From IMG/VR virus record IMGVR_UViG_3300025015_000009, positions 1 to 64,000 of that record: a DNA stretch of 64,000 bases; one strand, written 5' to 3'. Below the pieces are notes generated by a model, which saw nothing but the letters and a program-made list of their open reading frames with translations, was not told the origin of the DNA and made no database searches. Of this stretch, positions 17,096 through 63,835 are shown one piece after another (within the stretch, counting starts at the first letter, position 1; each line of letters begins with the position of its first letter). Source of the DNA: a virus. Taxonomy: Duplodnaviria > Heunggongvirae > Uroviricota > Caudoviricetes. The position numbers and the translations under genes are program-made.

Positions 17096-17773
17096 TTAAC
17101 GGAATCTCATTTGCGAATTAATGACTGGATCTGTTATTACTAACTGCGGTCCATATGGGGTTAAACGAACCATCACGTTGTCTTCATGAACATCGATGTG
17201 GGTTGTAGAATGGGTTGCTAGTTTTGTTATTAGCCGGCTGACTGCCCCAAAGTTCTTATCTTTTACTCTGTTACTCCCTGGCCGAGCGATAGCTCTTTCT
17301 AGTATTCTACCGAACTCAAATGCGTTTTTAACCGGACCTAGTTTATCAACAAAAATTTTGTCAAGCAAAAAATCGAGTTCTTCTACTGACATTGATTGCA
17401 ACGGCTGTAACTGTTCGAGGTTAACAATATAGTAGTCTTTGTTACTAACTAACTTATCCCGAGACTTTATATGCTTTATTGATTCGACCCTGGGCAAATA
17501 CGGGTTGTGAGAGGAATGTTTCTTGCTAAGTAAAATATACTGCATGTACGCATTATCTTGCAATTCATCTTCTGTAGCAACGATCTTTATAACTGATGGG
17601 TCAGACTGACTCTTAATAACAACAGCTTCCATGCCAGACCCCAATCGCTCGTGTCCGTCTAGTCGTTCAGGATCAAATCCTTTCGAACTATGTACTCCAC
17701 GGTAAAACGCAACATCATGCGGTGATGTTACCATTGGTAACGGAGCCTCAGTTACAAACTGTTTAGCTCTCAT
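17096..17773 (-). CDS. Protein-kinase-like fold protein with MRxxEFxTE N-terminus
   Basis: A Gly-loop-like GSGMEAVVIK with a VIK lysine, and an HxDN-type segment IDVHEDNVMV. The N-terminus MRAKQFVTE fits the recurrent N-terminal family. Confidence 0.35.
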   Translation of the reverse strand: MRAKQFVTEAPLPMVTSPHDVAFYRGVHSSKGFDPERLDGHERLGSGMEAVVIKSQSDPSVIKIVATEDELQDNAYMQYILLSKKHSSHNPYLPRVESIKHIKSRDKLVSNKDYYIVNLEQLQPLQSMSVEELDFLLDKIFVDKLGPVKNAFEFGRILERAIARPGSNRVKDKNFGAVSRLITKLATHSTTHIDVHEDNVMVRLTPYGPQLVITDPVINSQMRFR

Positions 17774-18017
17774 CTGATTCGGTCACATGACTTCCTACTA
17801 TATTGGCAAACACTCTCTTTGCTATGTCAACGACGTGCTGGTAGTTCCCGCCTAATTTAGAGAAAACAAGGTTAACGGTTGTAGTGAACGCCGACCGTTG
17901 ACCGATGCCTTGTTTAAGCATCTGGGTTAGGTGTTTCTCTAAGATTGCCTCAATCTCGTTATCTGACATGGACTCGGTTATTTTAGATCGTTCAGTTGTA
18001 AATTCGGTTGCTCTCAT
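17763..18017 (-). CDS. Small protein of the MRxxE[IF]xxE N-terminal family
   Basis: Begins MRATEFTTERS. Confidence 0.35.
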   Translation of the reverse strand: MRATEFTTERSKITESMSDNEIEAILEKHLTQMLKQGIGQRSAFTTTVNLVFSKLGGNYQHVVDIAKRVFANIVGSHVTESDES

Positions 18018-22914: not shown

Positions 22915-22949
22915 ATTATACACTCTTTAACCAAAAAGTCAACCGAAAT
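22915..22949 (-). promoter_or_regulatory. Conserved promoter cassette (copy)
   Basis: An identical cassette. It drives a small 56-aa ORF that is not in the track, at about 22718..22888 on the minus strand. Confidence 0.5.
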
Positions 22950-23320
22950 AAGTCACATGTAAGTCGTTGTTTACTTACACATAATATCAGGGAATATCGG
23001 TGTTTTTTGCTGGATAACAGCAGCCGTTCGCCGTTAATATACCACTCTTTGCGTCCATCTGCGTGTACTACAGCAGGACCATCTTCTCTGTGCAATTTGC
23101 CATTGACATACCAACATTTGGTTCCATCTGCGTGTACCACAGCGGGGCCATCTTCTCTGTGCAATTCGCCGTTGATGTACCATTGCTTCCCGCCACCTTC
23201 GTATATCACCGCGGGGCCATCTTCTCTATGCCGTAGGCCGTTAACAAACCACCTGGTGGTTCCGTCGTCATCAACAATTATTGTTGATTTAAGCAACGCA
23301 AGTAACTGATTCGCGGTCAT
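22916..23320 (-). CDS. MORN-variant repeat protein (copy 3, 3'-truncated and read-through)
   Basis: Four good repeats, then NGERLLLSSKKH... non-repeat read-through into the promoter cassette. The canonical C-terminus is missing. Confidence 0.5.
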   Translation of the reverse strand: MTANQLLALLKSTIIVDDDGTTRWFVNGLRHREDGPAVIYEGGGKQWYINGELHREDGPAVVHADGTKCWYVNGKLHREDGPAVVHADGRKEWYINGERLLLSSKKHRYSLILCVSKQRLTCDLFRLTFWLKSV

Positions 23321-26291: not shown

Positions 26292-26300
26292 TTAATTAGT

Positions 26301-33677: not shown

Positions 33678-34504
33678 ACTATGCGTTCTTTACAGTTATC
33701 AAAATGCCACCGTTTCATGTTATTGTTGCTTTTACTAACTATCGTACAGTGTGGGCAAACAATCTCAGTTCTCAGTGCCCACGAGCGTTTAGCCGATTCT
33801 GATCTAAGTTTTTTTAGTTTTTCTGCCATTGCTGCTCCATATATCTCTGCATACGTCTTTCCTTTATGACCGGTCTCTCTTCCGAGTAGTGCATTTCGAA
33901 TAGCAACTTTTCTTTTTTCAGTACACGATCCTGTTTTTCTACCTTTTTGTGCTAACGACAGTGCGGCACGGTGCTCGGCAGTTTTCTTAACACCGGTCAA
34001 GGCAATCGATACTTTCCTTCCATGCCCACTTGGTTTTGGCTTTTTTAACTTAGCAATAATAGTAGGATCAGTTGCCTTCTTTTTATTTGCCAGGGCAATA
34101 TTAGCTCTATGAGTCGCACTTTTCGGTTTCCCTTTGCTTGCAATTGACATCTTTAATTTGACCTCATCTGATGTTTTTAATCCTGCTGTTGACCATTTCT
34201 TAGTGTTTGTGTTAGGATCAACATATTGTTGATTTAAACACTTAGGGTCAGCTATATGAGTCATTATTAATAACTGTTCTAACCAATAGTAACTATCAAC
34301 ACTGTGCTCTCCTTCGAACAAAACAGTAAACGTAAACGCAGAAAGTCCGAAGTCTCTGATCTGCGCCTTAATAACTTTAGATGACGACAAATACCGTTTC
34401 CCTAAGTCTTGCCTGGCAGGAAGAGTATTCTTAAATCTGGAACCATAGTAATACTCAGATGTTGTCGTGTTTACAATAATGTATGTATACGGTAATATGC
34501 TCAT
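33674..34504 (-). CDS. GIY-YIG homing endonuclease with NUMOD-like DNA-binding repeats
   Basis: YTYIIVNTTTSEYYYGS is GIY...YIG. Repeated x-HRA-x-S-xA-xKG motifs. Confidence 0.6.
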   Translation of the reverse strand: MSILPYTYIIVNTTTSEYYYGSRFKNTLPARQDLGKRYLSSSKVIKAQIRDFGLSAFTFTVLFEGEHSVDSYYWLEQLLIMTHIADPKCLNQQYVDPNTNTKKWSTAGLKTSDEVKLKMSIASKGKPKSATHRANIALANKKKATDPTIIAKLKKPKPSGHGRKVSIALTGVKKTAEHRAALSLAQKGRKTGSCTEKRKVAIRNALLGRETGHKGKTYAEIYGAAMAEKLKKLRSESAKRSWALRTEIVCPHCTIVSKSNNNMKRWHFDNCKERIV

Positions 34505-34540: not shown

Positions 34541-34987
34541 ATGTGGACATATAATAACGTACAAATTCAAGACACTGATATACCAGAACAGGCAATTGGC
34601 TTCATATACATTATTACGCACACGCCGTCGTCTCGCAAGTATATCGGTAGAAAGCTATTAACTATGGCAGGCACAAAACAAGTAAACGGGAAAAAGAAGA
34701 AGATACGTAAGGACAGCAAATGGAGAGACTATTGGTCTAGTTCACCAGATTTACTTAAACTGATTGCTACTGAAGGGATTGATAATTTCACCAGAGAGAT
34801 TATTTGTTTCGCTAACTCGAAAAGTTCGCTGTCGTACATGGAAGAAGCAATGCAGTATCAGCTTGGGGTGTTAGAAACAGAACACTGGTTTAACTCTAAC
34901 ATCCGAGCAAAAGTGTACCGACGCAATGTATTCGGTAAATCAGATATCATTGTTTTCAGAGAAATGTTGACTAAGTTCGGTCGTTAG
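34541..34987 (+). CDS. GIY-YIG endonuclease-like protein
   Basis: GFIYIITHTPSSRKYIGRK. One of only a few plus-strand genes. Confidence 0.5.
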   Translation: MWTYNNVQIQDTDIPEQAIGFIYIITHTPSSRKYIGRKLLTMAGTKQVNGKKKKIRKDSKWRDYWSSSPDLLKLIATEGIDNFTREIICFANSKSSLSYMEEAMQYQLGVLETEHWFNSNIRAKVYRRNVFGKSDIIVFREMLTKFGR

Positions 34988-42048: not shown

Positions 42049-42297
42049 TTAGATTAGCTCAGGCCATTTAAGCAATGCCATAGTAATAAGATTCATTGCT
42101 TGTTTCTTGTTGGTGTATTCCCAAGGATAAACTCCACTTCCACACTGACAAAAATGACCGAGCAACTCGAGTTGTGCAGATGCAGGTGTTACTAAGTGTA
42201 GCTTTATTCGAATTATATACGTTGATCCTTTTGTACCTGGCCTATGGTGACTGGTGCATGACAAGCCATTTCCCTTGTATATGAGCAATGGAGTCAC
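42049..42297 (-). CDS. Hypothetical protein (paralogue of 41746..42024)
   Basis: See the pair above. Confidence 0.35.
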   Translation of the reverse strand: MTPLLIYKGNGLSCTSHHRPGTKGSTYIIRIKLHLVTPASAQLELLGHFCQCGSGVYPWEYTNKKQAMNLITMALLKWPELI

Positions 42298-42614
42298 GCC
42301 GACCGCTTCTCTTCAGTAGAAGTCCATCGTCTATTGGCAAACCCACGCAAGTAGCGGGAGCGCCGCTCTTCGGCTGCAAGGAGCCAGGCGCTTTCAGACA
42401 GTTCGCACCAATGGGTTGAGCCGCTTGGCATCGGCAAACAGTCGCTTGATATCCGACCGAAGCGCACGAAACCGTTGTCGTGCCAAAGCGCGGCAAGTTG
42501 CATATCTTCTGCGTTCATGTGTTGAGTGTGGACTGCACCACTGTGGTCAACCGCGCGAGATTCAAAATACAGTAATAGACTGCGCTCGTTCTTCGAGAAC
42601 GTTTCTAATTTCAA
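42294..42614 (-). CDS. Hypothetical protein
   Basis: 106 aa. Confidence 0.3.
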   Translation of the reverse strand: MKLETFSKNERSLLLYFESRAVDHSGAVHTQHMNAEDMQLAALWHDNGFVRFGRISSDCLPMPSGSTHWCELSESAWLLAAEERRSRYLRGFANRRWTSTEEKRSA

Positions 42615-42894
42615 CTTTCGCTCCTGATTTAACTTAGGTTACTATTGCGTTATGCACGCTCTATTTCTGAAATAGCATCGCGTATCTGTGTCCTTACTGG
42701 GTATGCCCACCAAAGCTCCGGATCATCGTATTGGTCATCATCGGACTTTATCGATTCGTGAGGTGAAATAATATCATCGACTTCATCTAGAATCAGCGTC
42801 AATTTTGCTTTGATCTTGTCTCGGTTTGCCATTATGTCTCCCATTATGTATCTACTTCTCAAATTTTAATACCACTCTGCCGATGACATACGAG

Positions 42895-43380
42895 TTACCC
42901 AACAAGATCTTTAAGATCCCAATACATCTTGCAATACTTGTCCATTCTTGCTGATGCCTTAGGACTAATTTCTTTCAGACGCCTTGCGTCCATATTATGG
43001 CGGAGGTCGCACAGTTTAACTCTAACCGCGTCGGTATTTGCTTTTATGCCAGCAACGTATACTTCGTGTGTCTGACCAGGAATCTTTGTAAGTGCCCGAA
43101 CGCCGGCGATAACTCGAGGGGTCATGCCTAAGTTATACAACTCGGTGTATCCGTCTTCTTGTACATCATAGCAATCTTCAACAACATCGTGCAACACTGC
43201 AATTGCCATTAGTTCGAGATCATCTGTTTTGAGATAGTGCATCACTTTGCTACAGTGCAAAAAGTACGGTAATCCACCTTTGTCAAATTGAGTTTTATGC
43301 TTTTCTGCTGCAAACGCAATTGCTGTTGCTAACATCGTCTTTTTCATAGTAACCTCTGCTATTGAGTTTGTATAATACAC
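42895..43380 (-). CDS. HD-domain hydrolase, RelA/SpoT (ppGpp hydrolase, Mesh1-like) type
   Basis: AFAAEKHKTQFDKGGLPYFLHCSKV...VLHDVVED matches the N-terminal HD region of SpoT/Mesh1. Upstream lies TTGACA-17-TATTAT. Confidence 0.5.
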   Translation of the reverse strand: MYYTNSIAEVTMKKTMLATAIAFAAEKHKTQFDKGGLPYFLHCSKVMHYLKTDDLELMAIAVLHDVVEDCYDVQEDGYTELYNLGMTPRVIAGVRALTKIPGQTHEVYVAGIKANTDAVRVKLCDLRHNMDARRLKEISPKASARMDKYCKMYWDLKDLVG

Positions 43381-43815: not shown

Positions 43816-43913
43816 TCAATAAACTGTACATAATTGTAATTGTGTATTATTGCACATTTTAACCGATCTGTCAATCACTAATGTGAATAAATAAGTTATT
43901 ATTAGGACACACA

Positions 43914-44552
43914 ATGAGAGTAAAAGAGATTATAGTAGAAGGTGCCCAGCATCCGATCATAGTAGTTGATGTTCAACCCGAGTACGTCAAATATGGTGGA
44001 TACTCGACTCAGGATACATGCAAGGAAATCATTAACTTTGTTCAGAAACAAACAGGTCCAGTGTTAATGTTTGTTAATGCTGAACACACTGGGGTATCCG
44101 ACGATACTGTTCAGAGCATAAAGCAATACTGGGAGGAAACAGTAAACGGAGAACCAGTGTACGATAAAGAGTACGGTGATTATGTTGCCCCTGATCAGCA
44201 AATCAATTGGAGTAGATTCAGAGTAGTCGACAAAGGTTATGGATATTTTAGATCCTGGCTGGATTACGGTATAACCCCAGCTACGATCATACGAGTAATT
44301 CGGGCTATGTATCAGGCAAAAATAACCGATAGCCGTGATTTACCTGATTTAGAAAAAATAGTAGGTGACGAATGGGAACCCCGGATGTACGAGGATTCGT
44401 TGAGTGTTAAGTGGACTTCGATTGCTCAGCTAAAACGATTCAATAATGCATACTTAGTGGGTGGCGGCAGAGATGAATGTTTGCGTGAGGTTGAGCTACT
44501 CATGAATGCGTTCAACATTTCGTACAAACGTATAGATAGGTTGGTGTACTAA
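43914..44552 (+). CDS. Hypothetical protein, MRxxEIxxE N-terminal family
   Basis: Begins MRVKEIIVEG. First gene of a translationally coupled four-gene plus-strand cassette. Confidence 0.45.
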   Translation: MRVKEIIVEGAQHPIIVVDVQPEYVKYGGYSTQDTCKEIINFVQKQTGPVLMFVNAEHTGVSDDTVQSIKQYWEETVNGEPVYDKEYGDYVAPDQQINWSRFRVVDKGYGYFRSWLDYGITPATIIRVIRAMYQAKITDSRDLPDLEKIVGDEWEPRMYEDSLSVKWTSIAQLKRFNNAYLVGGGRDECLREVELLMNAFNISYKRIDRLVY

Positions 44553-44553
44553 T

Positions 44554-44943
44554 ATGAAGGCAACAGAATTTTTAACCGAGAAGTTCGTTATTAAGGATAA
44601 AATCGGTGGTATCGAATACGGAATCGGTGACCATTTTATGACGCAATGGCAACTACCTGAACGCAAGCACATTACATGGAATCAAATTACTCGTATTATC
44701 AAACGTATTCCGTACATAAAACCGAAACTGTTACAGATGATAAACTTTAATAAGTTTTACCTCAGAGACTCTGAAACCGGAGTAGAACTCGGGTGCAAGT
44801 TTACTACCTTTGGCAAGCCTGAGGTGTTGCTATTATATATTAACACTGTAGTATCAACTGATCATGTCCGAAAATCTGACACCCCAGTTATTGTTGTTAA
44901 CGGACCAGTAAAGTCACTAACTATACCGCAAGGCGCACAATGA
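44554..44943 (+). CDS. Hypothetical protein, same N-terminal family
   Basis: Begins MKATEFLTEK. Confidence 0.45.
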   Translation: MKATEFLTEKFVIKDKIGGIEYGIGDHFMTQWQLPERKHITWNQITRIIKRIPYIKPKLLQMINFNKFYLRDSETGVELGCKFTTFGKPEVLLLYINTVVSTDHVRKSDTPVIVVNGPVKSLTIPQGAQ

Positions 44944-45716
44944 GAATTAACGAAATCACAGAAGCTCAGGTTAAACCATATAAATCTAAGAACTTGTCTA
45001 TCGAGGCAGCGGTTAATAGGCTGAACACGTATTGCAAGGAATCGATTGCACTTATACATAATCCAATTTGGCGTGGGATGACTAATCATCGGCAGGAAAT
45101 CGTAATGATCGACCCGTCTACCGGAATGCGTAAGTCTGAGAACACATCTAACCATTACACTATACTAATAGATACTTCACCGCATTATGTTAACTGGCCG
45201 AAGCGAAGCAAGAGCTTAGTTTGCTCAACAGACCGAGCATATGCATACGGGTACTCGCAGAGAGACTCGTTGTATGCGATCTTTCCGTTTGACGGGGTTA
45301 AGGTAGCAGTTTGCCCAGACGAGGATATCTGGCACACTGCGGTTAATATTCCTGAGTTCGACATATCAGAAGAGCTATATAAAGTTAATCGTATCCTCTC
45401 TGATAACTTTAGAATACCGGCGACGAGTTTCAGTGCAATGGTGGGATATATTCAAACACCCCAGTTCGCTAACTTATTTTGGCAGAAATTAAATCCGAAG
45501 TTCAAGAAAGTTGTGCCCAGTGACATGCTCGATATCCTCTATCGGGCATTGGCACCGCATAAGGTCGGATTTAAGTTGCTGTCAACTTCAGAACTAGCAA
45601 ACGCGCACTACTATGACAACGAGGTGTGGTTCAGCGGGCCGTGTATAGCAATCCGAGAGGATCTATACAAACGGTTTGTAGAAGAATATGATGTACAGAA
45701 CGACGGTGTAAAATGA
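44940..45716 (+). CDS. Hypothetical protein, same N-terminal family
   Basis: Begins MRINEITEAQ. The start overlaps the previous stop (ATGA). Confidence 0.45.
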   Translation: MRINEITEAQVKPYKSKNLSIEAAVNRLNTYCKESIALIHNPIWRGMTNHRQEIVMIDPSTGMRKSENTSNHYTILIDTSPHYVNWPKRSKSLVCSTDRAYAYGYSQRDSLYAIFPFDGVKVAVCPDEDIWHTAVNIPEFDISEELYKVNRILSDNFRIPATSFSAMVGYIQTPQFANLFWQKLNPKFKKVVPSDMLDILYRALAPHKVGFKLLSTSELANAHYYDNEVWFSGPCIAIREDLYKRFVEEYDVQNDGVK

Positions 45717-46195
45717 GAGTTAACGAGGTAGTAACCGAAGACGAAAACAATGCCCCTGAGTTTGTTTTTATTATCGGTGGTGCAGGATCAGGGAAGAACT
45801 ACTTTATTAACCACCACCCTGTCTATCGTGGGTACAGGTTAATAGATGTCGATGTTATTAAACAGTCAGTGGACCTGTCAACCGCAATCGGCCTTATTAC
45901 GCCTATGTTAGAAGAAGCGTTTAAGAAGAAACTAAACGTAGTGCATCCTGGAACGGGCGCAAATCTTCCTGCTAGTAAGAACAAGATCGCCCTGGCTAGG
46001 AAACACGGGTATAGAGTAACGCTGTTATTAATTGACACTGATCTAGAAACTGCGGCAGGAAATGTGCAGAAACGCGCCGCGGCAGGCGGCCATGACGTTA
46101 ACATCGACGTTATTGCTAACAGCAACAACAAAGCAAAGAACAACTTCTCCCAGCTAACAGATCTAGTAGATTCATTTGCTGTTATCAAACGGTAG
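45713..46195 (+). CDS. P-loop NTPase/kinase-like protein, same N-terminal family
   Basis: Begins MRVNEVVTED. Walker A GGAGSGKN and Walker B-like TLLLIDTD. 160 aa. Confidence 0.5.
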   Translation: MRVNEVVTEDENNAPEFVFIIGGAGSGKNYFINHHPVYRGYRLIDVDVIKQSVDLSTAIGLITPMLEEAFKKKLNVVHPGTGANLPASKNKIALARKHGYRVTLLLIDTDLETAAGNVQKRAAAGGHDVNIDVIANSNNKAKNNFSQLTDLVDSFAVIKR

Positions 46196-46817: not shown

Positions 46818-47489
46818 TTACTTATAGAAGATGTGGTTGTCGATTTGCATAACTTTCTTCAGCGACTTGTTCCAAATTGGATCAACTGTTAAATTATGGT
46901 AATGTGTTGCACCGTTGGTAATGTCTGTGATATCTCGAGACTGCGTCTTAAGAGTCAGCAGTGCCATAATCGCCGATTGACTGTCTCTCCATGTTTGACT
47001 GGAAGTTGCAATTGTCGGTAACGAGTCGTTACACGTCCAAGAGAACTGACACACACCGTTGTTCTTGTCTTTTGCATAAACGATGCCGCAAATAGTAGAC
47101 TGTTTTGCTTGTTCGAGTCGATTCAGAACTACTTGCGCGACCGCGAGTTTGCCCATCAGGCTCTCTGCGCCTGCCTCGTAATATACATTCTTAGCCATGC
47201 ATAACAGTTGCTGACTGTCTATCACTCCGTACATCTTAATAATTCGTTGGTTCGACAATATATTTTCGAGATCAGAGTGTAGTATCGTACCAGTTGATGT
47301 TGTTCGTTTAGATGTATTGGTATATTCAGACAAGTCGGCGGTTTGACGGGGCATCAACTTCGATTTCACTTGGTTCATTCCGATTACTAATCCGTTGGGG
47401 TTGAGCGCAACAACAGCAAGTAACAAGAACATAATAACTAACCAACTGGTGGCGAGAAATGGTTTACTAACAAACAGTATCCTTTGCAT
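46818..47489 (-). CDS. Cell-wall hydrolase, SleB/Hydrolase_2-like (candidate endolysin)
   Basis: N-terminal signal-anchor. AKNVYYEAGAESLMGKLAVAQVVLNRL...CQFSW resembles the SleB-type hydrolase core. Upstream lies TTGACA-17-TATAAT at 47531..47563. Confidence 0.55.
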   Translation of the reverse strand: MQRILFVSKPFLATSWLVIMFLLLAVVALNPNGLVIGMNQVKSKLMPRQTADLSEYTNTSKRTTSTGTILHSDLENILSNQRIIKMYGVIDSQQLLCMAKNVYYEAGAESLMGKLAVAQVVLNRLEQAKQSTICGIVYAKDKNNGVCQFSWTCNDSLPTIATSSQTWRDSQSAIMALLTLKTQSRDITDITNGATHYHNLTVDPIWNKSLKKVMQIDNHIFYK

Positions 47490-47575: not shown

Positions 47576-48130
47576 TTATCCAATAATAACGTCTGCTGAA
47601 CACGTATCTATTTTATGCCCGCAGCTGACAATATCGTCTTTTCGCCCTGCTGCCAATCCCTGCATAGTCACTGTTGAACTTCCGGCCGATACGTAACTAT
47701 TGGGATGCGTTGTGGTTCCTTTTGTTTGCCCTGGGAACGCAACTACTTGTGTTGAATTTGGCGGATAGCCCGATCCCTTTGTGGGGTCCTCAGGATCTTC
47801 TAGTATAGTAACCCCACTTAACATCCACCCTCCCCCTACTAGTGGTGTCATGCTTAACTCGTATGCTGGTGGAATACCACCACCAGCAATTTCCATTCCG
47901 GGATAACTCATATATCCGGTGCCCGAGTATATAACAGCGACTCCGGATATATACCCGTTTGCACCGACTGTCGCCTGGCCAACTGCCGCTACTCCGTTGT
48001 TATGCGTTAGTATCTCGGCACCCACAACAACCGCAGGAATGTTGTTTATTATAACAGTTGGCGCGAGGTTTCCGACAATCGTTCCGCCTGACGCATTAAT
48101 TTTGTCACCTACTCTAGCAGCAAATGGCAT
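47576..48130 (-). CDS. PAAR-like spike-tip protein
   Basis: MPFAARVGDKI...GGTIV...PTVIINNIPAVVVG and the C-terminal CGHKIDTC resemble PAAR repeats. Confidence 0.5.
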   Translation of the reverse strand: MPFAARVGDKINASGGTIVGNLAPTVIINNIPAVVVGAEILTHNNGVAAVGQATVGANGYISGVAVIYSGTGYMSYPGMEIAGGGIPPAYELSMTPLVGGGWMLSGVTILEDPEDPTKGSGYPPNSTQVVAFPGQTKGTTTHPNSYVSAGSSTVTMQGLAAGRKDDIVSCGHKIDTCSADVIIG

Positions 48131-48131
48131 A

Positions 48132-48524
48132 CTAAACTAGAATACTACCTTTAGGAACCGATTGAATACCCGATGTCGTTTCGATGTAATGCTGCTGTAG
48201 CCGGTCAACTATCTCGCACGGAATCATAACATGACTCTTTTGAATAGTTACAGGTTTATTGGGATTCATTGATATCACAGTTTGCATTAACCCTAAACCA
48301 GTTGCGCTGGGGACCACTGTCATTGGTTTCGATACGATATATGCAGTTGGTGTTTCTTCAACTAGCTTCGCTAATACTTCTTCTGAAGTAACAAGTTTCA
48401 AACAGATTACTTCTCCTACACTAATTCCTTTTGTTATAAGCATGTCGATCCCTTTAAATAAGTTCGCACGAGTTACCTGTGCATGATAATGTTTGTGATC
48501 CTTCGGTTTTGTCTTCGTGCTCAT
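48132..48524 (-). CDS. Hypothetical protein
   Basis: 130 aa. Confidence 0.3.
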   Translation of the reverse strand: MSTKTKPKDHKHYHAQVTRANLFKGIDMLITKGISVGEVICLKLVTSEEVLAKLVEETPTAYIVSKPMTVVPSATGLGLMQTVISMNPNKPVTIQKSHVMIPCEIVDRLQQHYIETTSGIQSVPKGSILV

Positions 48525-49467
48525 TGACTACAAACTGATCCCAGTTAATCTTCGGAGTAAGTTTTAACTGTTCTTCATATTCTGCCTTTGAAATCGGTTG
48601 ATACGGTGCTTGAGCATAGGTATGTTCGCTATACGGCAGGAACGATATTCCACCGATCTCATCAAAGTGTTCGTACACCCATGCACCGACTTTCATCCAT
48701 TCGTGCTCACGTACATATACGGTTATAGACACGGTATGCTCTGCCCAATTACGGTAAAACATCAAGTAATGCTCAAGTTGATCAATTGCTGTCATCTCAG
48801 ATGCAATACGGGCATGTGACGGTGACTTAGTCGGAAAACTAAACACCCAGGTTTTATCTGGTTTAGTAACTTCGTCTTCACACTTTATCCCTTGCTCTTT
48901 AAGAAACATTCCGATCGGATCAAGTTTGTCGCTGCGAACAGTTCTAACATAATAATGAGAGTAACGAGGATGAATTCCCGATGAACTATCTACTAATTGT
49001 GATACCGTGCCCGACGGCTTCGTTGTTGTTACGGCTACAGATTGGTTAATGCCTAACTTCTCTGCCCATACCTTGTTTGTTTCGATTGCACATTCTTTCA
49101 TTTTCGTTAACCAAGTTACTGCTTCATCGTTAACGTATCCTAGAACCTGATGGTCCATAATGCCGGTTAGTGACACTCCCAATAGACGTTCCTCTTCTGC
49201 GTTCTTCTTCCAAATGTTTCTTAGATACCTAAACGTAGTTAAACTAGACTGAAACGTACCTACGATAGTAGCAAGTTCTACTTTCTTCAATAATGACTCT
49301 AAAGTGTCATGTTCGCGAATAATTACTTCAGATAAGTTGCAAAATCCGGCTGATCTTAAGAATATTTCACAATTATGCACTAACACATCATTTGCAAAAA
49401 AGTTGCTTGTTTCTGGGACAGTAAAATCATATACATCTTCGTGCCCATCTTCTTCTATTATTAACAT
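48454..49467 (-). CDS. nrdJ: Class II (NrdJ-like) ribonucleotide reductase C-terminal fragment, preceded by an intein C-segment
   Basis: The N-terminal 32 aa MLIIEEDGHEDVYDFTVPETSNFFANDVLVHN carry intein blocks F and G. The extein starts CEIF, completing the N-P-C-C-E active-site motif with the previous fragment. The C-terminal CTGNSCELI is the CxxxxC redox tail. Confidence 0.7.
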   Translation of the reverse strand: MLIIEEDGHEDVYDFTVPETSNFFANDVLVHNCEIFLRSAGFCNLSEVIIREHDTLESLLKKVELATIVGTFQSSLTTFRYLRNIWKKNAEEERLLGVSLTGIMDHQVLGYVNDEAVTWLTKMKECAIETNKVWAEKLGINQSVAVTTTKPSGTVSQLVDSSSGIHPRYSHYYVRTVRSDKLDPIGMFLKEQGIKCEDEVTKPDKTWVFSFPTKSPSHARIASEMTAIDQLEHYLMFYRNWAEHTVSITVYVREHEWMKVGAWVYEHFDEIGGISFLPYSEHTYAQAPYQPISKAEYEEQLKLTPKINWDQFVVNEHEDKTEGSQTLSCTGNSCELI

Positions 49468-50525
49468 TAAAATTTCTCCGTCATAGTTTGGTTAATTAAC
49501 TCAATTATTGATTTTGGTTTTGCATCGAAAGTAAATATCATTCCCGCATAATTATTTTTCTTAGCATAATCAAATGCTCCGTTTATTTTTACACTTAAAT
49601 ATTGTTTCTTGTTCTTCTCTAATAAAAATCCTTTTGTTTCTAGTATATACGTTTTCCCATTGTAAGTAAATATGAAATCTGGTTTATATGTTGTGTTTTC
49701 TAATACGATGCGAAACGGTTCGTAGTCCCAAGAAATTTTATTTGCTTCAAAAAAATCTATATAATTAGATTCATACGACGATCTGGTTAGAACATAATCA
49801 AGACCTCTCTTATGAAATATAAGATCTGTTTTGTCTATACGTTTAAATATTTTTGATCCACAAACATCAGAACAATACAACGCATGATGCCATGCTTTCC
49901 ACTTGTATCGTAACTGCATTAATTCTTCAGTGGGCAATAACACGATTTCATCATACGTAATTTTACTAAAAGTGTCTTCTAACTTGTGTTTTTTGATAAA
50001 ATTAATTATGCTTTTAGCAATAACCCGAGGGTTGAACTGTTTCTTAGACTCATATTGACTATTTAAGTTAATAACATCATTGTCATTCAAGGTTGCTACT
50101 TCGTCATATCCAACTGTTTTTAACTTTTTTCGTAAAAACGAAATAGTATTAACCTCTTTATTGTGCAATTTTCCCTTTTTCATTAACGTTGCGTTAAATG
50201 CTGCGTTTTGCCCAGACGCTGCCAATGCTGACATAAATTTAGAATGTTCTGGGCGTTTTTTACCATACAAAAAGTTACATTCTTTATTTCCGCAGTATCC
50301 GTCGAATTTTACACCCAACACAGCTTGTGAAGATCTGAGAACTCGTTTTGGTTTGCCGCAGCCACACAGCATTTGTTCTATTGTCCACTTTTTATTAACC
50401 AAATAATGGTCTACTACGTTCACATCGATACCCGATAATGCAATATATTCACTTTTATTCATGTGACAACCCTTGTGTTTTATACTATTATTTATCTTTT
50501 TAAAATAACTCACAAGGGTTATCAC
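49467..50525 (-). CDS. Free-standing homing endonuclease (Zn-finger plus PD-(D/E)XK)
   Basis: CGCGKP...C...C zinc ribbon. YKPDFIF...YILETKG is a D...ExK nuclease core. It lies between two RNR fragments. Confidence 0.5.
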   Translation of the reverse strand: MITLVSYFKKINNSIKHKGCHMNKSEYIALSGIDVNVVDHYLVNKKWTIEQMLCGCGKPKRVLRSSQAVLGVKFDGYCGNKECNFLYGKKRPEHSKFMSALAASGQNAAFNATLMKKGKLHNKEVNTISFLRKKLKTVGYDEVATLNDNDVINLNSQYESKKQFNPRVIAKSIINFIKKHKLEDTFSKITYDEIVLLPTEELMQLRYKWKAWHHALYCSDVCGSKIFKRIDKTDLIFHKRGLDYVLTRSSYESNYIDFFEANKISWDYEPFRIVLENTTYKPDFIFTYNGKTYILETKGFLLEKNKKQYLSVKINGAFDYAKKNNYAGMIFTFDAKPKSIIELINQTMTEKF

Positions 50526-50530
50526 CTTCT

Positions 50531-51619
50531 TTATCCGATTAATAATTCGTCATCTGGTTTAATATCTTTTGCCATAATATAACCTCTATTCTTAGTATAA
50601 ACTAGATGATCTTCTGTTACTCGTATAAATTTATTAGTTTTTGTATCGGTTATTTTTAATATCTTAGCATTATTACGAGTCAATGTTGCTGTGGTTACTT
50701 GATTGAATTCTGCTTCATTTTTTTCTAAATTAAACGATCTAATATATATATCGTCGCCACGTTCGTACAATGCAACAGCATCGTCAACGGTCATTCTATA
50801 TTCAATTTCATTGAGTTTAATATCAACTATCATATCACCAGAAACACAACAAGGATTTGCCCCCAGGAACATCTCTTCTGCCTTCTTGGCATCTCGTCTA
50901 CCCAGCTTCTTTATTTTATGCAACGCTGCTTGACGATTAAAGATACCACGCTCACCAGATTTAGATTCATACAACGACTTCCATTCTTGCATAAACACTC
51001 CCATATCGGGTTTTTCTGTATATGCAACAGAATTGTTAGCAAGAGCACGTTGAGGATTGTCTATCCACCATTGCCCGTTTTTAGCACTTCGCATCCTGTC
51101 GTCAGATAAGTTCGACAAAGAAATCTGCGCTGATCTCCTTACACCACCTACGACAATTGCAGATGCTATGCTGTTTAGAATATCGTGACATTCAATTGAC
51201 TGCAATTTACGGCCAGCAGCGTTTCTAAATACGCGAACTGTGAACTTAAATAACTCTTCCAGTGGTGTGGGACCAGAGCTTCTACCACCGAACGTCTTCA
51301 ACGGCGCGCCAGCAGGACGCAATGCGGTTAGGTCCCACTTCGGCACTTGGCCAGAGTATAGCATTGCAATCAACTCTCTAAACGCCGACGACCATCCAAT
51401 TTTCGAATCTCTCACCTTTATTACAGTATCAGTTTCGTGAAAATCCTCAGAGACTGCCGGCAATCTAGATACTGCTTGTCGTTCAACTGAAAACCCCACT
51501 CCTGATCCACAGTTATGCACGAGTGCGCCATTGCTTAACACAAAATTATGATTGATCGGAACGGTAATGTCCCAATAATTTCTTTCGTCTTTGATTATAC
51601 TCTTCTTAATTATCTTCAT
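50531..51619 (-). CDS. nrdJ: NrdJ-like RNR middle fragment flanked by an intein C-segment at the N-terminus and an intein N-segment at the C-terminus
   Basis: The N-terminal MKIIKKSIIKDERNYWDITVPINHNFVLSNGALVHN is a C-intein. The extein CGSGVGFS...LRPAG... matches the NrdJ glycine loop and ELRP region and ends ...GANPC. Then CVSGDMIVDIK...TEDHLVYT is an N-intein, followed by a stop. Confidence 0.7.
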   Translation of the reverse strand: MKIIKKSIIKDERNYWDITVPINHNFVLSNGALVHNCGSGVGFSVERQAVSRLPAVSEDFHETDTVIKVRDSKIGWSSAFRELIAMLYSGQVPKWDLTALRPAGAPLKTFGGRSSGPTPLEELFKFTVRVFRNAAGRKLQSIECHDILNSIASAIVVGGVRRSAQISLSNLSDDRMRSAKNGQWWIDNPQRALANNSVAYTEKPDMGVFMQEWKSLYESKSGERGIFNRQAALHKIKKLGRRDAKKAEEMFLGANPCCVSGDMIVDIKLNEIEYRMTVDDAVALYERGDDIYIRSFNLEKNEAEFNQVTTATLTRNNAKILKITDTKTNKFIRVTEDHLVYTKNRGYIMAKDIKPDDELLIG

Positions 51620-52493
51620 TATTTTTCCTTTTTATATTGCCTCTCGTCCATCCAACCGGATCTTCTCCTGGGGTAAATCTCTTTACTATTATACCATTAT
51701 TAAAATTTACTTTACCTTTGTTGGCTAAACTAATTTTATCCTTTACGTCTTGTCTCTTAGATGGATTGTTGTTCCCGCTTGTTTGCGGCCGAGCTACACC
51801 AATTTGTGCTTTACTAATTTTATCCTTTACATCTTGTCTCTTAGACGGGTTATTGTCTCCCCAATGAGAGGTTTTACCCAAATTTCCTAATACCCATCCT
51901 AGTGGTTCTGTCCCAGGACGAAACCTCTTAACTATTGTTCCGTTGTTATAATATTTTGCACCTTTACCTGAGTCTGGAATTTGTCCAGGTAATCTACCTC
52001 TAATCCATCCTAGTGGTTCTGTGCCCGGTGTGTATCTGTATTCTGCCGTTTGATTGTTAAAATACTTCTTACCTCTTATACTAGAACTCGTGTATTTCTT
52101 TAATTTAGTCTCTACTGTATCTTTTTTACCTGTACGTGCGTTACTTAGATTCTGTTTATGTGAGTCAGTAAAAGGTAATTGCTTATACTCTCCCAAGACT
52201 CCCCATTTAAATGCATGAGGGCATGTATTTTTTTGATTATAGTAATTAGTATCAAATACTGCATTTAGTTCGTTTATAATATCAAATTCTTTCTGATATA
52301 ATTCTTTTGCAGAATTGAACTCGAAGTGCAGTATTTGTCTCTTAAATGAATCGATCCCGTATTTGTTAATTGCAGCCACAAAGTATGTCCCCGAACCGAT
52401 ATACCCATCATCTACTCGACCAACATGAGAACCTACATACATTTTACCATTGATTAAATTTACCCACTTATATACAAATCCAATATATTCCAC
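51606..52493 (-). CDS. GIY-YIG homing endonuclease with NUMOD repeats
   Basis: YIGFVYKWVNLINGKMYVGSH is GIY...YIG. KRQDVKDKIS occurs twice. It lies between RNR fragments. Confidence 0.7.
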   Translation of the reverse strand: MEYIGFVYKWVNLINGKMYVGSHVGRVDDGYIGSGTYFVAAINKYGIDSFKRQILHFEFNSAKELYQKEFDIINELNAVFDTNYYNQKNTCPHAFKWGVLGEYKQLPFTDSHKQNLSNARTGKKDTVETKLKKYTSSSIRGKKYFNNQTAEYRYTPGTEPLGWIRGRLPGQIPDSGKGAKYYNNGTIVKRFRPGTEPLGWVLGNLGKTSHWGDNNPSKRQDVKDKISKAQIGVARPQTSGNNNPSKRQDVKDKISLANKGKVNFNNGIIVKRFTPGEDPVGWTRGNIKRKNNEDN

Positions 52494-52533
52494 ATTGCCT
52501 CCACATACTTTATTTATGCGGCACTAGGGTACA

Positions 52534-53199
52534 CTAACCTATTTCGTTATAATTTTTTATCTCGTCGACCTCGGTTAAATCTTTAGCCTCTACCCATCCA
52601 CGATTGTTAGTGAAAAACTTGTGGTCAGCAGTGCAACGAACAAATGTCCCATCTTCGAACTCTAATTCGATTTTGTCTCTGTGGCTTGACGGGGTTTCCG
52701 CTATAACAGACGGGCATGTATATTCGAATTGGTTAAGCTCAGTATTAAAACTTAACACTTCGTCAGTATAAACTAACTCAGATATTTTCTTATCACCTAA
52801 TTTAGTTTTAACCATTGTGTTAGGTTCAAAACACATTAGCAAATACATAGTCTCATCGAATGCGCGCGGATCATCAACTGCAATGTACGCACAATTGTAC
52901 CCGGCAGCCGCATCGCGCTCAAGGGCTTTACCGGCAGTCATTAATGCTCGCATCGACGGCATAACTTCTAGCTTGTTAATTGCATCGTATACTTCTTCTT
53001 TTGGAAAAAGACCTGGATACTTCTCGTCAAAGAACGTAACATACCGACTTATTGTTTCTTCCCAGGTTTCTCGTCGCTGCAAATCTGGAATGTACCTAGC
53101 GTACCTACTCATAGCAATGTATCGTTGGTAGTCTGACATGTTACTGTAATTGGATTTCATTTTTCTCTTTTCTTTAATTATTTGGTGCGGCCAGAACAC
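52534..53199 (-). CDS. nrdJ: NrdJ-like RNR N-terminal fragment followed by an intein N-segment
   Basis: SRYARYIPDLQRRETWEETISRY...MPSMRAL... is typical of the class II RNR N-terminus. The extein ends ...MYLLM. Then CFEPNTMVKT...CTADHKFFT (intein blocks A and B) and a stop. Confidence 0.7.
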   Translation of the reverse strand: MFWPHQIIKEKRKMKSNYSNMSDYQRYIAMSRYARYIPDLQRRETWEETISRYVTFFDEKYPGLFPKEEVYDAINKLEVMPSMRALMTAGKALERDAAAGYNCAYIAVDDPRAFDETMYLLMCFEPNTMVKTKLGDKKISELVYTDEVLSFNTELNQFEYTCPSVIAETPSSHRDKIELEFEDGTFVRCTADHKFFTNNRGWVEAKDLTEVDEIKNYNEIG

Positions 53200-58372: not shown

Positions 58373-58750
58373 TTATATGCCTGATGCTCGTTTAGCCATC
58401 TGCGATACTGTTGTCTCTTGTTCTGTTTCCGCTGGGACATCGTTGTCAGCAATGTCTGCTTCTTCGTCGTTCTCTGTCCGAAGTGTAATCGAGTCTTTAT
58501 TAAAAGACTTAACTAAGTTCTTAACCAACGGAGAACTATTTGCTACAACCAGGTCCTGGTAACAGAAACTCTCATGACCTGCTTTTTGAACCAACGAAAT
58601 AAAGCTACTTGTTTTAATAGATGGACTACTTCCGTCCACTGACGCTCGTTGTCGAAGGAACTGTAACATTGTAGCGATACTCGCAGCTAGGTCTTCACCG
58701 TCGGCCGAGTCCTCTTTAATGTAACTACTTGGCATAAATTCGTTAAATCG
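58373..58750 (-). CDS. Hypothetical protein, MRxNE[IF] N-terminal family (start revised)
   Basis: The track ORF overlaps its upstream neighbour. The internal Met gives MRFNEFMPSSYIKE, which fits the family. Confidence 0.35.
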   Translation of the reverse strand, partial: RFNEFMPSSYIKEDSADGEDLAASIATMLQFLRQRASVDGSSPSIKTSSFISLVQKAGHESFCYQDLVVANSSPLVKNLVKSFNKDSITLRTENDEEADIADNDVPAETEQETTVSQMAKRASGI

Positions 58751-58760
58751 CATAAGTACC

Positions 58761-59126
58761 TTAGTTGATTGCGCGCGCTGCCATAGCAGCGACAGTCGAC
58801 TGGTTCTTCTCTTTAACCGACGCTGCATCTTTCTGTGATGTGTTGTCGTTTGTTACCGTTGTTGCTTCTTTTGAAAACTTCACCTTCTTTGCGTCGATTG
58901 ACGAAATTTGCTTCTGTACGGCTGGACTGCGCTCGTTTGCATCAATTAAGTCCTTAAGAGTAAAAGACTGTCCAGTCTTTTCAATTATCATATTAATCAA
59001 CGCTGGCGTGTCGATCTCGCTGTGGCCTTGATGGACCAGTTTCTGCAACACCCTACTAATTAATCTGGCCACAGTGACTACGTCAGCGAAGCTACGATTT
59101 TCGTTTACTATTTCAGAAACTCTCAT
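58761..59126 (-). CDS. Hypothetical protein, MRxxEIxxE N-terminal family
   Basis: Begins MRVSEIVNEN. Confidence 0.4.
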   Translation of the reverse strand: MRVSEIVNENRSFADVVTVARLISRVLQKLVHQGHSEIDTPALINMIIEKTGQSFTLKDLIDANERSPAVQKQISSIDAKKVKFSKEATTVTNDNTSQKDAASVKEKNQSTVAAMAARAIN

Positions 59127-59794
59127 TAACGCAACTCTCTACCAGCAGCATCGTTGCCACCAACTGCTGCATCTGCCGCATCAAACCCATCTGAACTGTT
59201 GTCCAAATCCTCTTGTCCGTTGATCTCTGGTCCTTCCTGCGGTACACCGCCTACCTGCATTGCAGATGAGTCTACATCTCCTGTTAATGCTCTAACACTA
59301 GAATCAGCCTGATCGCGTGACAATGTTAGTTGACCAGCAAGAGTTGCTAACATTTGGCCAATTGATGCCTTAAACGCATCGGCTTCTGCGCTTCCAATTT
59401 GATCTCGAATTGTGTCAGCAAGAGCAGGTAGTTGCTCGTTCTGAATTTTTCCGGCCTTCTCTATCATATTCTGAATACTATCTACTATGTCTCGTGCGGC
59501 AAGTAACGCCTCCGCCTGGCCAACTTCGCCTTCAGTTAGTTGTTTCTTCTCTTGCATCCAGTTGACGAGACTCTCTCGAACCAAAATCAGTTCAGTGTAT
59601 TTCGGACTCTTCTCGGAAGAATGAATGTCCGAACTAAGTCGAATTTTCGCAATGGCCTCAGTTAACGAACGGGTTAACTTTTGTGCTTTGGTCATTGACA
59701 TATTATTAAAGTCCACCGTAAATCCAAACCTAGATTCAAAGATTCGATTCATTTTGCCGTAGTACGCCCGTGTTCCCATATCTGTTAATTTCAT
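59126..59794 (-). CDS. Hypothetical protein
   Basis: 222 aa. Confidence 0.3.
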   Translation of the reverse strand: MKLTDMGTRAYYGKMNRIFESRFGFTVDFNNMSMTKAQKLTRSLTEAIAKIRLSSDIHSSEKSPKYTELILVRESLVNWMQEKKQLTEGEVGQAEALLAARDIVDSIQNMIEKAGKIQNEQLPALADTIRDQIGSAEADAFKASIGQMLATLAGQLTLSRDQADSSVRALTGDVDSSAMQVGGVPQEGPEINGQEDLDNSSDGFDAADAAVGGNDAAGRELR

Positions 59795-60294
59795 AGTTTA
59801 AAATCCCTAAGTTTATAATATTTAGCCAAGTTTATCTTTTTTTCTAATTCTTTTGACACTACCTGAATCAGCGCACTAGTTTGTAAGTAACGAGCAGTGT
59901 ATAAATCTTGCTTCCACTGATCCTGTGTTTGCATTGCTGCGGTTAGTCTTGCTTTAAATGCAAGATTGTCTAGCTTTAACACTGCGACGTGCTTGTCTAA
60001 CCGTGCAATATCTAATGCTTCTTCTTCGTTCTTTGTTTGCATACACACACAATATAACATTGCGTTTGTGTAATTGTTAAGCACCACTGTTGAATTAATG
60101 TCTGTAACTACCCATCCGTTGTCAGTATTAATCACTTTATATCTTCCGACTATGTACTTATCGGTGTTTATCTTAAGACACAGTGGTAATTTTCTAAAAG
60201 TAAATGTTCGTCTTTCCAGCTCGCTGCGTGTTAACGTTTTGAGTGCATTAAACGAGAGAACTTCTGTTGCTTTGTTTATACGATACCTGGCCAT
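59791..60294 (-). CDS. Hypothetical protein
   Basis: 167 aa. Confidence 0.3.
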   Translation of the reverse strand: MARYRINKATEVLSFNALKTLTRSELERRTFTFRKLPLCLKINTDKYIVGRYKVINTDNGWVVTDINSTVVLNNYTNAMLYCVCMQTKNEEEALDIARLDKHVAVLKLDNLAFKARLTAAMQTQDQWKQDLYTARYLQTSALIQVVSKELEKKINLAKYYKLRDFKL

Positions 60295-60469
60295 TATTGA
60301 CCTTTCTGATTAAAACGTCCTTAACTACCAGCTGGTTTGCTAGTAACTGATCCCGATCGGTTAGTTCCTTCTTTAAGACACTCTTATCAACTGGGAGCTT
60401 TCCTAAGAAATCAGCTTCTTCGTTCGTTAAGGGCACTTGATATTTTCCACTAATTTCTGCTATTCTCAT
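60248..60469 (-). CDS. Small protein, MRxxEI N-terminal family
   Basis: Begins MRIAEISGK. Confidence 0.3.
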   Translation of the reverse strand: MRIAEISGKYQVPLTNEEADFLGKLPVDKSVLKKELTDRDQLLANQLVVKDVLIRKVNNGQVSYKQSNRSSLV

Positions 60470-62150: not shown

Positions 62151-62720
62151 CTACAAGTTATGTGTTCGTTTAAAAATAACATACAAGTCTGTTTGTAGCG
62201 CTCGTTCGTTACACTCGGCTCGCAGTGTTGTCAACGTACTATGCTTCTCAGCTGTGGATGCCTGGTGCCAATCTCCTACGATTCGACGAATCGAACTATA
62301 TTTGTTAATCCTAAAATACGTTTCCAGTATCAGTAAAAATGCGCGATCTTGACTGTGATGTGCGTTCTCGTACTTCATATCTGTTAGGTACCGTTTGAGT
62401 TGCAGCAACGGAACCGATATAGTAAAATCAGCATAAATTGGTTGTAAAAACTTGTCCTGATTTGCCAACACCGAAACCAGATTGTAGTAATCGGTTTGTG
62501 AGGGACACATATAAGAGAAGTCTTGTTTCCTTAACGTCTTTTCTGCATACTCTCTGGCAGAGAAATGATAGTTTTTATCTACTTCTACTCGCATTATCTC
62601 TAAGCAGAACGTTAATAGTAATATGGCTTCTGCTAACTCTGCGGCGGTTTTATTTCGTATCGACGACCCATCGTTGTAGTATCGCGCTTCGTGTAGCTCT
62701 TCTAAGAAGGGAAGGTTCAT
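62151..62720 (-). CDS. Hypothetical protein
   Basis: 189 aa. Confidence 0.3.
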   Translation of the reverse strand: MNLPFLEELHEARYYNDGSSIRNKTAAELAEAILLLTFCLEIMRVEVDKNYHFSAREYAEKTLRKQDFSYMCPSQTDYYNLVSVLANQDKFLQPIYADFTISVPLLQLKRYLTDMKYENAHHSQDRAFLLILETYFRINKYSSIRRIVGDWHQASTAEKHSTLTTLRAECNERALQTDLYVIFKRTHNL

Positions 62721-63835
62721 GACCGCACCTTCTCGAAGTTTGCTAAACTAAACTTGCTACGATCAACATACTTCGTGTCACCTACAACATATCCTTCACC
62801 ACCGTGTTCTCCGTTTATTGTTGCCCTAATAGGAGAATTAGCAGTGTCTAGCTGTGCAACTACTTCGTTCTTTATAGTCATTATCGCCTGCACCGTAGTA
62901 AATGTTGCTACCGCACCTTTGCTGTTCTCGTTTATGTACTGAAGCAACTTCTCTTGTTTAACCTTGCTTACCTTACTAGTTGATAACCACGTAGCAAACG
63001 ACCCTGCTAAATTGCCTAGTCCTCGTGACTTAACCATAGCATTGATATACGTGTAGAGTATATCTGGGACATCAGACATCTTCAATTCTGCTAACCTGGC
63101 AGAATCCAAGAAACTGTCTATGTCCGATGCATATTTTTGTACAAACTGCTTTGCTTGTTTTATCTTTGCAGAGTCTATACTAACACTGGGTTCAACGAAC
63201 GTAGGGCCGATTACCATAACCTCAGTGTTTAAGTTTAAATCAGTTAAGTCTAACGGAACATCGGGTTGGTTTGGACCAGCGGTCTTGGAATGTACTGCTA
63301 TTCCAGCGGTACTCTTAGAAATTCTAATGCCTAACTTAGAGTCAGCAGCGACATGATATGTCACTGTATTCGGAGTAAATACAAAATCGTTGTTTCTATC
63401 GATTGCTGGCTTACTGCTATAGAGCAGATCCCCCTTAACAAAGCCACGAAAGGAATCAGGTACAACTTTCTCGAACCTATCGTACAAACCGGCCATCCCT
63501 TTAGCAAATGCCCGTCTGGCGTCGTTTAGTTCTTTGCCACGGCTTAAGAACATATTCTCTAGCTCCTCAGCCGAAGTTGCAAGCCCATTGTACCCTTTTG
63601 CAGTAAACCCAGATTTGTCAGTTAAAACAAATTGGCCATCTGGCAATCGACCAAAGTAAATTGCAGGAGACCCGTCGAACTTAACCGAGATGTTCTTCGA
63701 AGAGCCAAGATGGTCTAATTGATTTAGTACTCTAATCGCGCCCTGAGATCCTTCCCAGAGAATAAAATCCTCTGCATGTTGAATACGGGCATCTTCCGTT
63801 AAAATACGGTCTTCTATTATCTCGTTTACTCTCAT
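62717..63835 (-). CDS. Protein with ligase/nucleotidyltransferase-like KxDG and EGYVV motifs, MRVNEIIE N-terminus
   Basis: VKFDGSPAIYFG is KxDG-like. The C-terminal GEHGGEGYVVGDTKYVDRSKF resembles ligase motif IV/V. The spacing is atypical, so the call is tentative. Confidence 0.3.
   Translation of the reverse strand: MRVNEIIEDRILTEDARIQHAEDFILWEGSQGAIRVLNQLDHLGSSKNISVKFDGSPAIYFGRLPDGQFVLTDKSGFTAKGYNGLATSAEELENMFLSRGKELNDARRAFAKGMAGLYDRFEKVVPDSFRGFVKGDLLYSSKPAIDRNNDFVFTPNTVTYHVAADSKLGIRISKSTAGIAVHSKTAGPNQPDVPLDLTDLNLNTEVMVIGPTFVEPSVSIDSAKIKQAKQFVQKYASDIDSFLDSARLAELKMSDVPDILYTYINAMVKSRGLGNLAGSFATWLSTSKVSKVKQEKLLQYINENSKGAVATFTTVQAIMTIKNEVVAQLDTANSPIRATINGEHGGEGYVVGDTKYVDRSKFSLANFEKVRS

Follow-up and report, generated by a model that had tools for sequence, protein, structure and literature searches.

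Ten genes in a 64,000-nucleotide stretch of tailed-phage DNA (Caudoviricetes; IMG/VR record IMGVR_UViG_3300025015_000009, positions 1 to 64,000; hereafter the window) open with the same short N-terminal tag, M-[RK]-[VIAF]-x-[EQ]-[IFV], and carry mostly unrelated bodies behind it. We propose, with a probability of roughly 0.7, that the tag in its full form, M-[RK]-hydrophobic-x-E-[IFV]-x-x-E, is a portable capsid-targeting propeptide of the bacteriophage T4 type. The initial annotation had read the tag as a capsid-targeting and protease-cleavage signal of this type; each part of that interpretation open to checking held, and we regard it as supported. The source is an uncultured groundwater phage of ~318 kb, a distant T4-superfamily relative near Agrobacterium phage Atu_ph07, Salicola phage SCTP-2 and Ralstonia phage RsoM2USA. 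The tagged genes are as follows, a slash marking the end of the tag or proposed propeptide:

43914..44552, plus strand: cassette gene 1, 212 residues, MRVKEIIVE/GAQ (tag encoded by 43914-43940); acidic body, isoelectric point 5.0.
44554..44943, plus strand: cassette gene 2, 129 residues, MKATEFLTE/K; basic, isoelectric point 9.5.
44940..45716, plus strand: cassette gene 3, 258 residues, MRINEITE/AQV; predicted ADP-ribosyltransferase (ART)-fold body, homologue of Atu_ph07 gp53-gp63.
45713..46195, plus strand: cassette gene 4, 160 residues, MRVNEVVTE/D; predicted P-loop kinase, AAA_33/zeta-toxin-like.
17096..17773, minus strand: 225 residues, MRAKQFVTE/APL; protein-kinase-like, T7 gp0.7 family (phrog_15752, E 3.7e-10).
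17763..18017, minus strand: 84 residues, MRATEFTTE/RSKITE/S; ATAAATA 18 nucleotides upstream.
58761..59126, minus strand: 121 residues, MRVSEIVNE/N; paralogue of 58373..58753.
58373..58753, minus strand: 126 residues from 58753, MRFNEFMPSSYIKE/D; like the long form of the T4 protein IPI (tag, linker, I-x-E).
60248..60469, minus strand: 73 residues, MRIAEISGKYQVPLTNE/E; weak match to phrog_16215 (virion structural proteins), E 3.3e-5.
62717..63835, minus strand: 372 residues, MRVNEIIEDRILTE/DARIQHAED; DUF6267, RNA-ligase-like nucleotidyltransferase.
59126..59794, minus strand: probable eleventh tagged gene, 222 residues, MKLTDMGTRAYYGKMNRIFE/S; phrog_14154 'virion structural protein', E 1.7e-8.

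A scan of all six frames of the window with M[RK][VIAFL].[EQ][IFVL] returned exactly ten matches, each at the start of an open reading frame (ORF), 0-33 codons past a stop, with every tag beginning at Met-1. Amino-acid composition predicts 0.08 matches in ~110 genes, bearing out the earlier statement that the motif recurs on at least ten proteins. Among the internal methionines of called proteins (n=343), the single match is the alternative start at 58753 itself. A longer ORF from 58828 runs over this gene and probably does not mark its true start; syntenic homologues in two other large contigs, L019 and L020, begin MRISEVYTD and MRFFEFASS. Glu occupies residue 8 or 9 in eight of the ten proteins, and [ILVT]-x-E ends at one of these residues in eight of ten. 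The 58753 product has I-K-E at residues 12-14, and the 60469 product only T-N-E at residues 15-17; the orthologue of the latter in a third contig, L015, begins MKVSELIGSFEIFSTNEE. A relaxed scan of the window yielded the probable eleventh gene (MKLTDM...), whose homologues begin MKTTDLF or MRTTDIF.

The plus-strand starts first reported (43914, 44554, 44940 and 45713) were correct, whereas the minus-strand positions given with them (17096, 17763, 58761, 60248 and 62717) are the low, stop-side ends of genes whose start codons lie at 17773, 18017, 59126, 58753, 60469 and 63835. Translational coupling of the four plus-strand genes is visible as TAAtATG at 44552/44554 and as ATGA overlaps at 44940 and 45713.

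The tag follows the pattern of the T4 propeptides, one residue shorter, which upholds the likeness to T4 drawn earlier. In the T4 genome (NC_000866), IPI begins MKTFKEFTSTTTPVSTITE/A, IPII and IPIII MKTYQEFIAE/A, Alt MELITELFDE/D and gp24 MAKINELLRE/S, sharing E-[FLI]-x-x-E and an ending in hydrophobic-x-Glu. The window consensus M-R-V-N-E-I-I-x-E aligns, again with a residue fewer, to x-N-E-L-L-R-E of gp24 and Q-E-F-I-A-E of IPIII; the 58753 product and many DUF6267 homologues (MRFVEFKQ...PLAE/G) resemble the long IPI form. The T4 capsid targeting sequences (CTSs) are propeptides of 10-19 residues; the first ten residues of IPIII suffice to package foreign proteins, residues 4 and 7 serving targeting and residues 8 and 10 cleavage by gp21 (PMC9026906; PMC9958956; PMC3012670). 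AF2 models give low confidence to residues 1-10 and 1-15, with well-folded bodies behind.

We compared the bodies by BLASTP after removing 12 N-terminal residues. Only one pair is paralogous, the adjacent 58761-59126 and 58373-58753 (E 1e-6, 27% identity), and to that extent the claim that all downstream sequences are unrelated needs amending; every other pair gave E >0.04. Because the trimmed search finds this pair only, and because families and folds differ, the bodies are distinct. They do include the P-loop kinase, the protein-kinase-like protein and the ligase-like protein originally named, the second through its T7 gp0.7 PHROG. The product of 45713-46195 matches Pfam AAA_33 (E 1.9e-10, 41.6 bits, cut-off 27) and Zeta_toxin (E 3.2e-9, 36.9 bits, cut-off 22.3), carries a Walker A motif (GGAGSGKN, residues 22-29) and is homologous to the middle part of the Atu_ph07 virion protein gp53 (tblastn/BLASTP); these matches assign its body to the AAA_33/zeta-toxin type of P-loop kinase. 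The DUF6267 protein (62717-63835) shows motif I (an invariant KxDG that includes the catalytic Lys), other motifs typical of nucleotidyltransferases and an RNA-ligase fold, and the 44940 body is predicted to adopt an ART fold as in T4 Alt. The remaining tagged genes are small, two of them matching PHROGs labelled virion structural protein. Profile searches of the bodies, a check suggested at the outset, were thus productive for 45713 and 17096 and returned nothing from Pfam or PHROG for 43914, 44554 and most small members; cassette gene 1 also has no PDB sequence match, and PDB sequence searches with three bodies gave no matches.

Selection on the tag acts at the protein level. Synonymous codon differences between copies, noted in the initial annotation, were observed (GAA/GAG, ATT/ATC/ATA and GTA/GTT): the Glu is encoded by GAA or GAG, and the hydrophobic residue by ATT, ATC, ATA, TTT or GTA. 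Within the tag, conservation peaks at codon position 2 and is lowest at position 3. The 30 nucleotides before the tagged starts hold 0.30 bits per position, with no conserved DNA in that interval. On the strength of the codon variation and the unconserved upstream nucleotides we reject an RNA element as the basis of the motif.

Homologues in other phages show that the tag is separable from the body: it is retained by nearly all metagenomic homologues in two families, DUF6267 and 44940, and missing from cyanophage DUF6267 proteins. The DUF6267 family has 1262 database homologues; among the best 120, MR..E[FIL] opens 109, followed by a linker of variable length, sometimes an insertion of 40-60 residues, and then the conserved core ARIQHAED. 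Within this set, [LIVF]-x-E stands directly before the core in all 108 homologues that have the tag as well as the core. At P3, 86 have Leu, 11 Ile and 9 Val, and P1' is small in 99 (Ala 57, Gly 35, Ser 7). This regularity gives indirect support to a cleavage after the Glu. DUF6267 homologues of T4-like cyanophages have no tag and begin MANVTQLKHLEHIED, approximately at the predicted start of the mature protein. Their genes (P-HM1 140504-141709; S-RSM4 42099-43301) lie between gp41/mazG and a cytidylyltransferase-type gene, a context of DNA and nucleotide metabolism; given this setting and the missing tag, the enzyme may be unpackaged in these phages. Scanning viral contigs with DUF6267 yielded just two loci.

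The 44940 family behaves alike, with a tag at the start of all 26 homologues whose N-terminus is intact. Close relatives begin MKSSEFITE/A, the Atu_ph07 paralogues MRWEQLTE and the most distant members MISFKQFLAE/A, the last being almost a T4 CTS. The version of the tag therefore follows the phage rather than the protein family, as expected of a signal read by a phage-specific partner. Runs of adjacent tagged genes occur in other large contigs too (10 in L019, 5 in L020 and 5 in L015).

An independent test of the link to virions is available in the relative Atu_ph07 (490 kb), which encodes gp20-, gp21-, gp22- and gp23-like head genes and whose proteome, from electrospray ionization tandem mass spectrometry, comprises 131 virion proteins out of 714 coding sequences (PMC6102473). 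Its gp204 is a prohead protease of the T4 gp21 type (PMC6102473 Table S3; PF03420). Coding sequences were numbered in genome order, and named genes together with the tabulated molecular weights served to verify the numbers. A first pattern, near that of the window, matches 15 annotated starts, 13 of them in virion proteins (Fisher p 1e-8). Under a relaxed rule (^M[RKQ]..[EDQ][LIFVMY] plus [LIVFM]-x-E ending at residue 8-13), 23 of the 25 tagged coding sequences are virion proteins, against the background of 131/714 (Fisher p 5e-16). After trimming, the tagged set resolves into 13 unrelated families, 11 represented in virions (binomial p 4e-7). Of the five matches not yet known to us when the rule was relaxed, four are virion proteins (p ~0.005). 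In this phage, then, the tag is strongly associated with virion proteins.

Several members of the Atu_ph07 set correspond to genes of the window or of T4. All of gp53-gp63, the homologues of 44940, were detected in purified virions, and gp53 is a fusion of a 44940-like domain with a P-loop kinase like that of 45713. The tagged gp199 (77 residues) is encoded directly after the portal gene, the position held by the core protein gp67 in T4. Two minus-strand ORFs of Atu_ph07 (MF403008.1) that are unannotated also carry tags and may be missed genes: 315248-315526 (MRLFDLFE/K, 92 residues) and 333031-333468 (MRPFDFDEFIE/P, 145 residues).

From these data we infer the following course for the window phage. 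The tagged proteins would be made late in infection, and their short, flexible N-terminal peptide would let them dock on the core scaffold of the prohead during its assembly. A gp21-type prohead protease would then cut after the Glu of hydrophobic-x-Glu, freeing the mature enzymes inside the head, from which they would pass, on ejection of the DNA, into the next host. The cargo would comprise a ready-made ART-fold protein, a P-loop kinase, a T7 gp0.7-like kinase, an RNA-ligase-like protein and several small proteins, acting before any phage gene is expressed; their host roles may include anti-defence.

A number of observations weigh against this interpretation. The 58753 and 60469 products have no Glu at residue 8 or 9, and P1' is Lys, Asp, Asp, Arg or Asn, not a small residue, at five of the eight proposed residue-8/9 sites. 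No gp21-type (PF03420, S77) prohead protease was found among the larger ORFs of the window, and a database search with Atu_ph07 gp204 did not single out the phage's own protease among the best 120 of 7999 PF03420 matches. The relaxed Atu_ph07 pattern was tuned after some virion N-termini were known, and tagged gp360 and gp597 were not detected in virions. Furthermore, 'virion-associated' in Atu_ph07 is not proof of a place in the head interior; hairs and whiskers could hold tagged proteins. The same wording of the proteome, the hair-like appendages of Atu_ph07 and the often non-small P1' residues of the window would suit a peptide that docks proteins to the virion (on tail, baseplate, hairs or whiskers, or through a shared assembly chaperone) and stays uncleaved on the mature protein, as would the nearby tail- and surface-like genes: a PAAR gene (47576-48130), a cell-wall hydrolase gene (46818-47489) and a gene for a 1182-residue protein with a fibre-like N-terminus. 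We consider this unlikely. The tag matches T4 head propeptides position by position, down to the hydrophobic-x-Glu end, L-x-E/A or L-x-E/G is highly regular in the DUF6267 homologues, and Atu_ph07 gp199 sits in the head-gene block beside the portal; moreover, it is hard to see what kinases, an ART-fold protein and an RNA ligase would do on the exterior of the virion.

Very unlikely, in our estimate, is a regulatory or degradation signal, read by phage or host Clp, that times the removal of enzymes rather than their packaging. N-terminal peptides are common as degrons, and Atu_ph07 encodes ClpX, ClpP, ClpB and a ClpS adaptor; however, proteins marked for degradation are not expected to be fivefold enriched in purified virions, no Clp genes were seen in the window, and the acidic, amphipathic tag seems unlike the known N-motifs of ClpX. 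Even less credence goes to a nucleic-acid feature at the start codon (an mRNA element, say, or an enhancer of translation initiation). Arg codon 2 is AGA in eight of nine cases, compared with ~24% of Arg codons in the window, a further point against a purely protein-borne signal and one that indicates some nucleotide-level preference as well; initiation is favoured by A-rich codons after ATG. Yet such a feature would sit poorly with the low upstream information, the poorly conserved third codon positions and the synonymous codons described above, with the persistence of the amino-acid pattern in distant phages that have their own versions (MRWEQLTE, MISFKQFLAE), or with the success of the tag as a predictor of virion proteins in Atu_ph07. 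Similarly improbable is a functionless remnant, left by shared ancestry or by recombination between the 5' ends of genes. In its favour, tagged genes often adjoin one another and are coupled, two of them are paralogues, and Atu_ph07 gp53-63 form a paralogue array; against it, the tag is found on at least nine unrelated bodies in the window and on 13 families in Atu_ph07, DNA divergence is too great to allow homologous exchange, and >90% of homologues retain the tag at 40-50% body identity, although the linker behind it varies freely. We thus retain the capsid-targeting propeptide as the preferred reading.

One upstream element of the cassette deserves mention:

43887..43893, plus strand: ATAAATA, a match to the core of the T4 late promoter TATAAATA, 20 nucleotides upstream of the first ATG of the cassette.

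A late promoter at 43887 is possible. The heptamer also precedes other tagged units, by 18 nucleotides at 18017 and by 49 at 60469. Since it is not over-represented across the window, we keep the late-promoter reading only as a hint. ATAAATA lies 4-50 nucleotides upstream of 14 gene starts (for example at 43887, 18042, 60525, 5229, 56882 and 58376), including those of two large genes, 2235-5198, whose product has head-decoration/tail-fibre-type domains, and 53299-56847.

The window derives, judging from its gene content and from the restriction of 44940 homologues to large genomes, from a huge phage that belongs, among jumbo phages, on the side of the T4 superfamily. It encodes rIIA, rIIB, a ribonucleotide reductase interrupted by intein and homing-endonuclease sequences, a T4-type RNA ligase, a PAAR protein and a cell-wall hydrolase. 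No close relative was found among 50,697 deposited phage genomes. Distant homologues of 44940-45716 occur in only six records of the phage collection, all large (344-642 kb), among them Atu_ph07, SCTP-2, RsoM2USA and two uncultured huge phages. A foreign origin of the cassette was considered and rejected, its GC content (0.39-0.45) being the same as that of neighbouring DNA; megablast of the cassette against the 50,697 phage records gave no match.

Other features of the window are recorded here for completeness. The pieces of the ribonucleotide reductase gene (48454-53199, minus strand) are interleaved with intein, HNH and GIY-YIG endonuclease ORFs, and further homing endonucleases lie at 33674-34504, 34541-34987 and 61027-61644. 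A second recurrent N-terminus, MK[VI]RxGFVSNSSSSSF, opens four neighbouring minus-strand genes (19129-19434, 19806-20288, 20285-20503 and 20537-21034, the last after upstream extension), which look like a small group of paralogues whose start is strongly conserved. A third, MTANQLLALLKSTI or MSPDQFLTLLKSTV, is found on three dispersed minus-strand genes of ~134-149 codons (16180-16626, 22916-23320 and 11318-11767). The 1182-residue protein of 53299-56847 (minus strand) starts MAITQKSRIKVRHG and has a fibre-like N-terminus and no family match. Its signature xxVxQISxIQxRxG also opens large proteins of two related contigs (L019 18251-19768 and L020 15140-16741) and the Atu_ph07 virion protein gp32 (25369-26295), and is probably a conserved fibre or attachment N-domain. 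ARAGORN called an 89-nucleotide tRNA-Asp at 18969-19057 (minus strand) within a region densely packed with ORFs; its anticodon, 'atc', does not fit Asp, and the prediction is probably false.

Whether the tag is a sequence-readable packaging code, with lineage-specific variants, shared across the T4 superfamily from T4 to uncultured huge phages is to us an even-odds proposition. If so, the set of injected proteins could be listed from a genome alone. For this phage the list would hold an ART-fold enzyme, two kinases, an RNA-ligase-like enzyme and about six small proteins, and huge phages would deliver a far larger arsenal of pre-made enzymes than T4. Ordinarily, only the virion proteomics of cultured phages reveals which proteins are injected; a predictive tag would extend this knowledge to metagenomic huge phages and nominate ART-fold proteins, kinases and the RNA-ligase-like protein as candidate first-minute effectors of host takeover or counter-defence. 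About 78% of Atu_ph07 virion proteins are without assigned function, and tagged cargo (13 families, 11 in virions) would explain some of them. The T4 CTS is already in use for loading foreign proteins into heads, a method that a working tag elsewhere would extend to other lineages.

In comparison with the T4 CTS (IPI, IPII, IPIII, Alt and gp24; removed by gp21), the window tag shares its place at the extreme N-terminus, a length within 8-19 residues and its order of features: Met, a short stretch containing a hydrophobic or aromatic residue, E-[FLI]-x-x-E and the hydrophobic-x-Glu end. Both are carried by unrelated, often fast-evolving proteins, among them an ADP-ribosylating enzyme in T4 and the predicted ART-fold protein in the window; in Atu_ph07, tagged proteins belong to the virion. 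The phages are alike as well: the window lineage has rIIA/rIIB, and its relative Atu_ph07 has gp20/21/22/23-type head genes. Unlike the CTS, the window tag has 9 rather than 10 residues, with an 8-residue form (MRINEITE; Atu_ph07 MRWEQLTE) two shorter, Arg or Lys is nearly fixed at position 2, and P1' is often charged. There are many more cargo families (at least nine in 64 kb, 13 in Atu_ph07), mostly enzymes and not small basic proteins; and for the window tag, targeting, cleavage and injection are proposed. Reviews already suggest that T4-like phages load varied proteins by CTS (PMC9026906). In the literature we found no description of such a tag outside T4 and close relatives, in Atu_ph07-like or uncultured huge phages, or attached to kinases, an RNA-ligase-like protein or arrays of ART-fold proteins.

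The phiKZ-like giants (phiKZ, 201phi2-1 and SPN3US) likewise package dozens of proteins and use a T4-related protease that cuts after Glu; they have paralogous cargo proteins with identical N-termini, cut at S/A/G-x-E (PMC5694885). Their propeptides differ from the window tag in being mostly >100 residues and in having a small P3 (Ala, Ser or Gly) rather than a hydrophobic one, and they are not known to carry one short tag on unrelated cargo. The lineage itself is different, with a virion RNA polymerase and a phage nucleus. A further likeness is to the cargo-loading peptides of encapsulins, in which a short disordered terminal peptide directs unrelated enzymes into an HK97-fold shell; these signals are C-terminal and uncleaved, serve a shell without DNA and have no sequence similarity to the window tag. 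The kind of element to which the window tag belongs is thus one already known, the capsid targeting sequence of T4.

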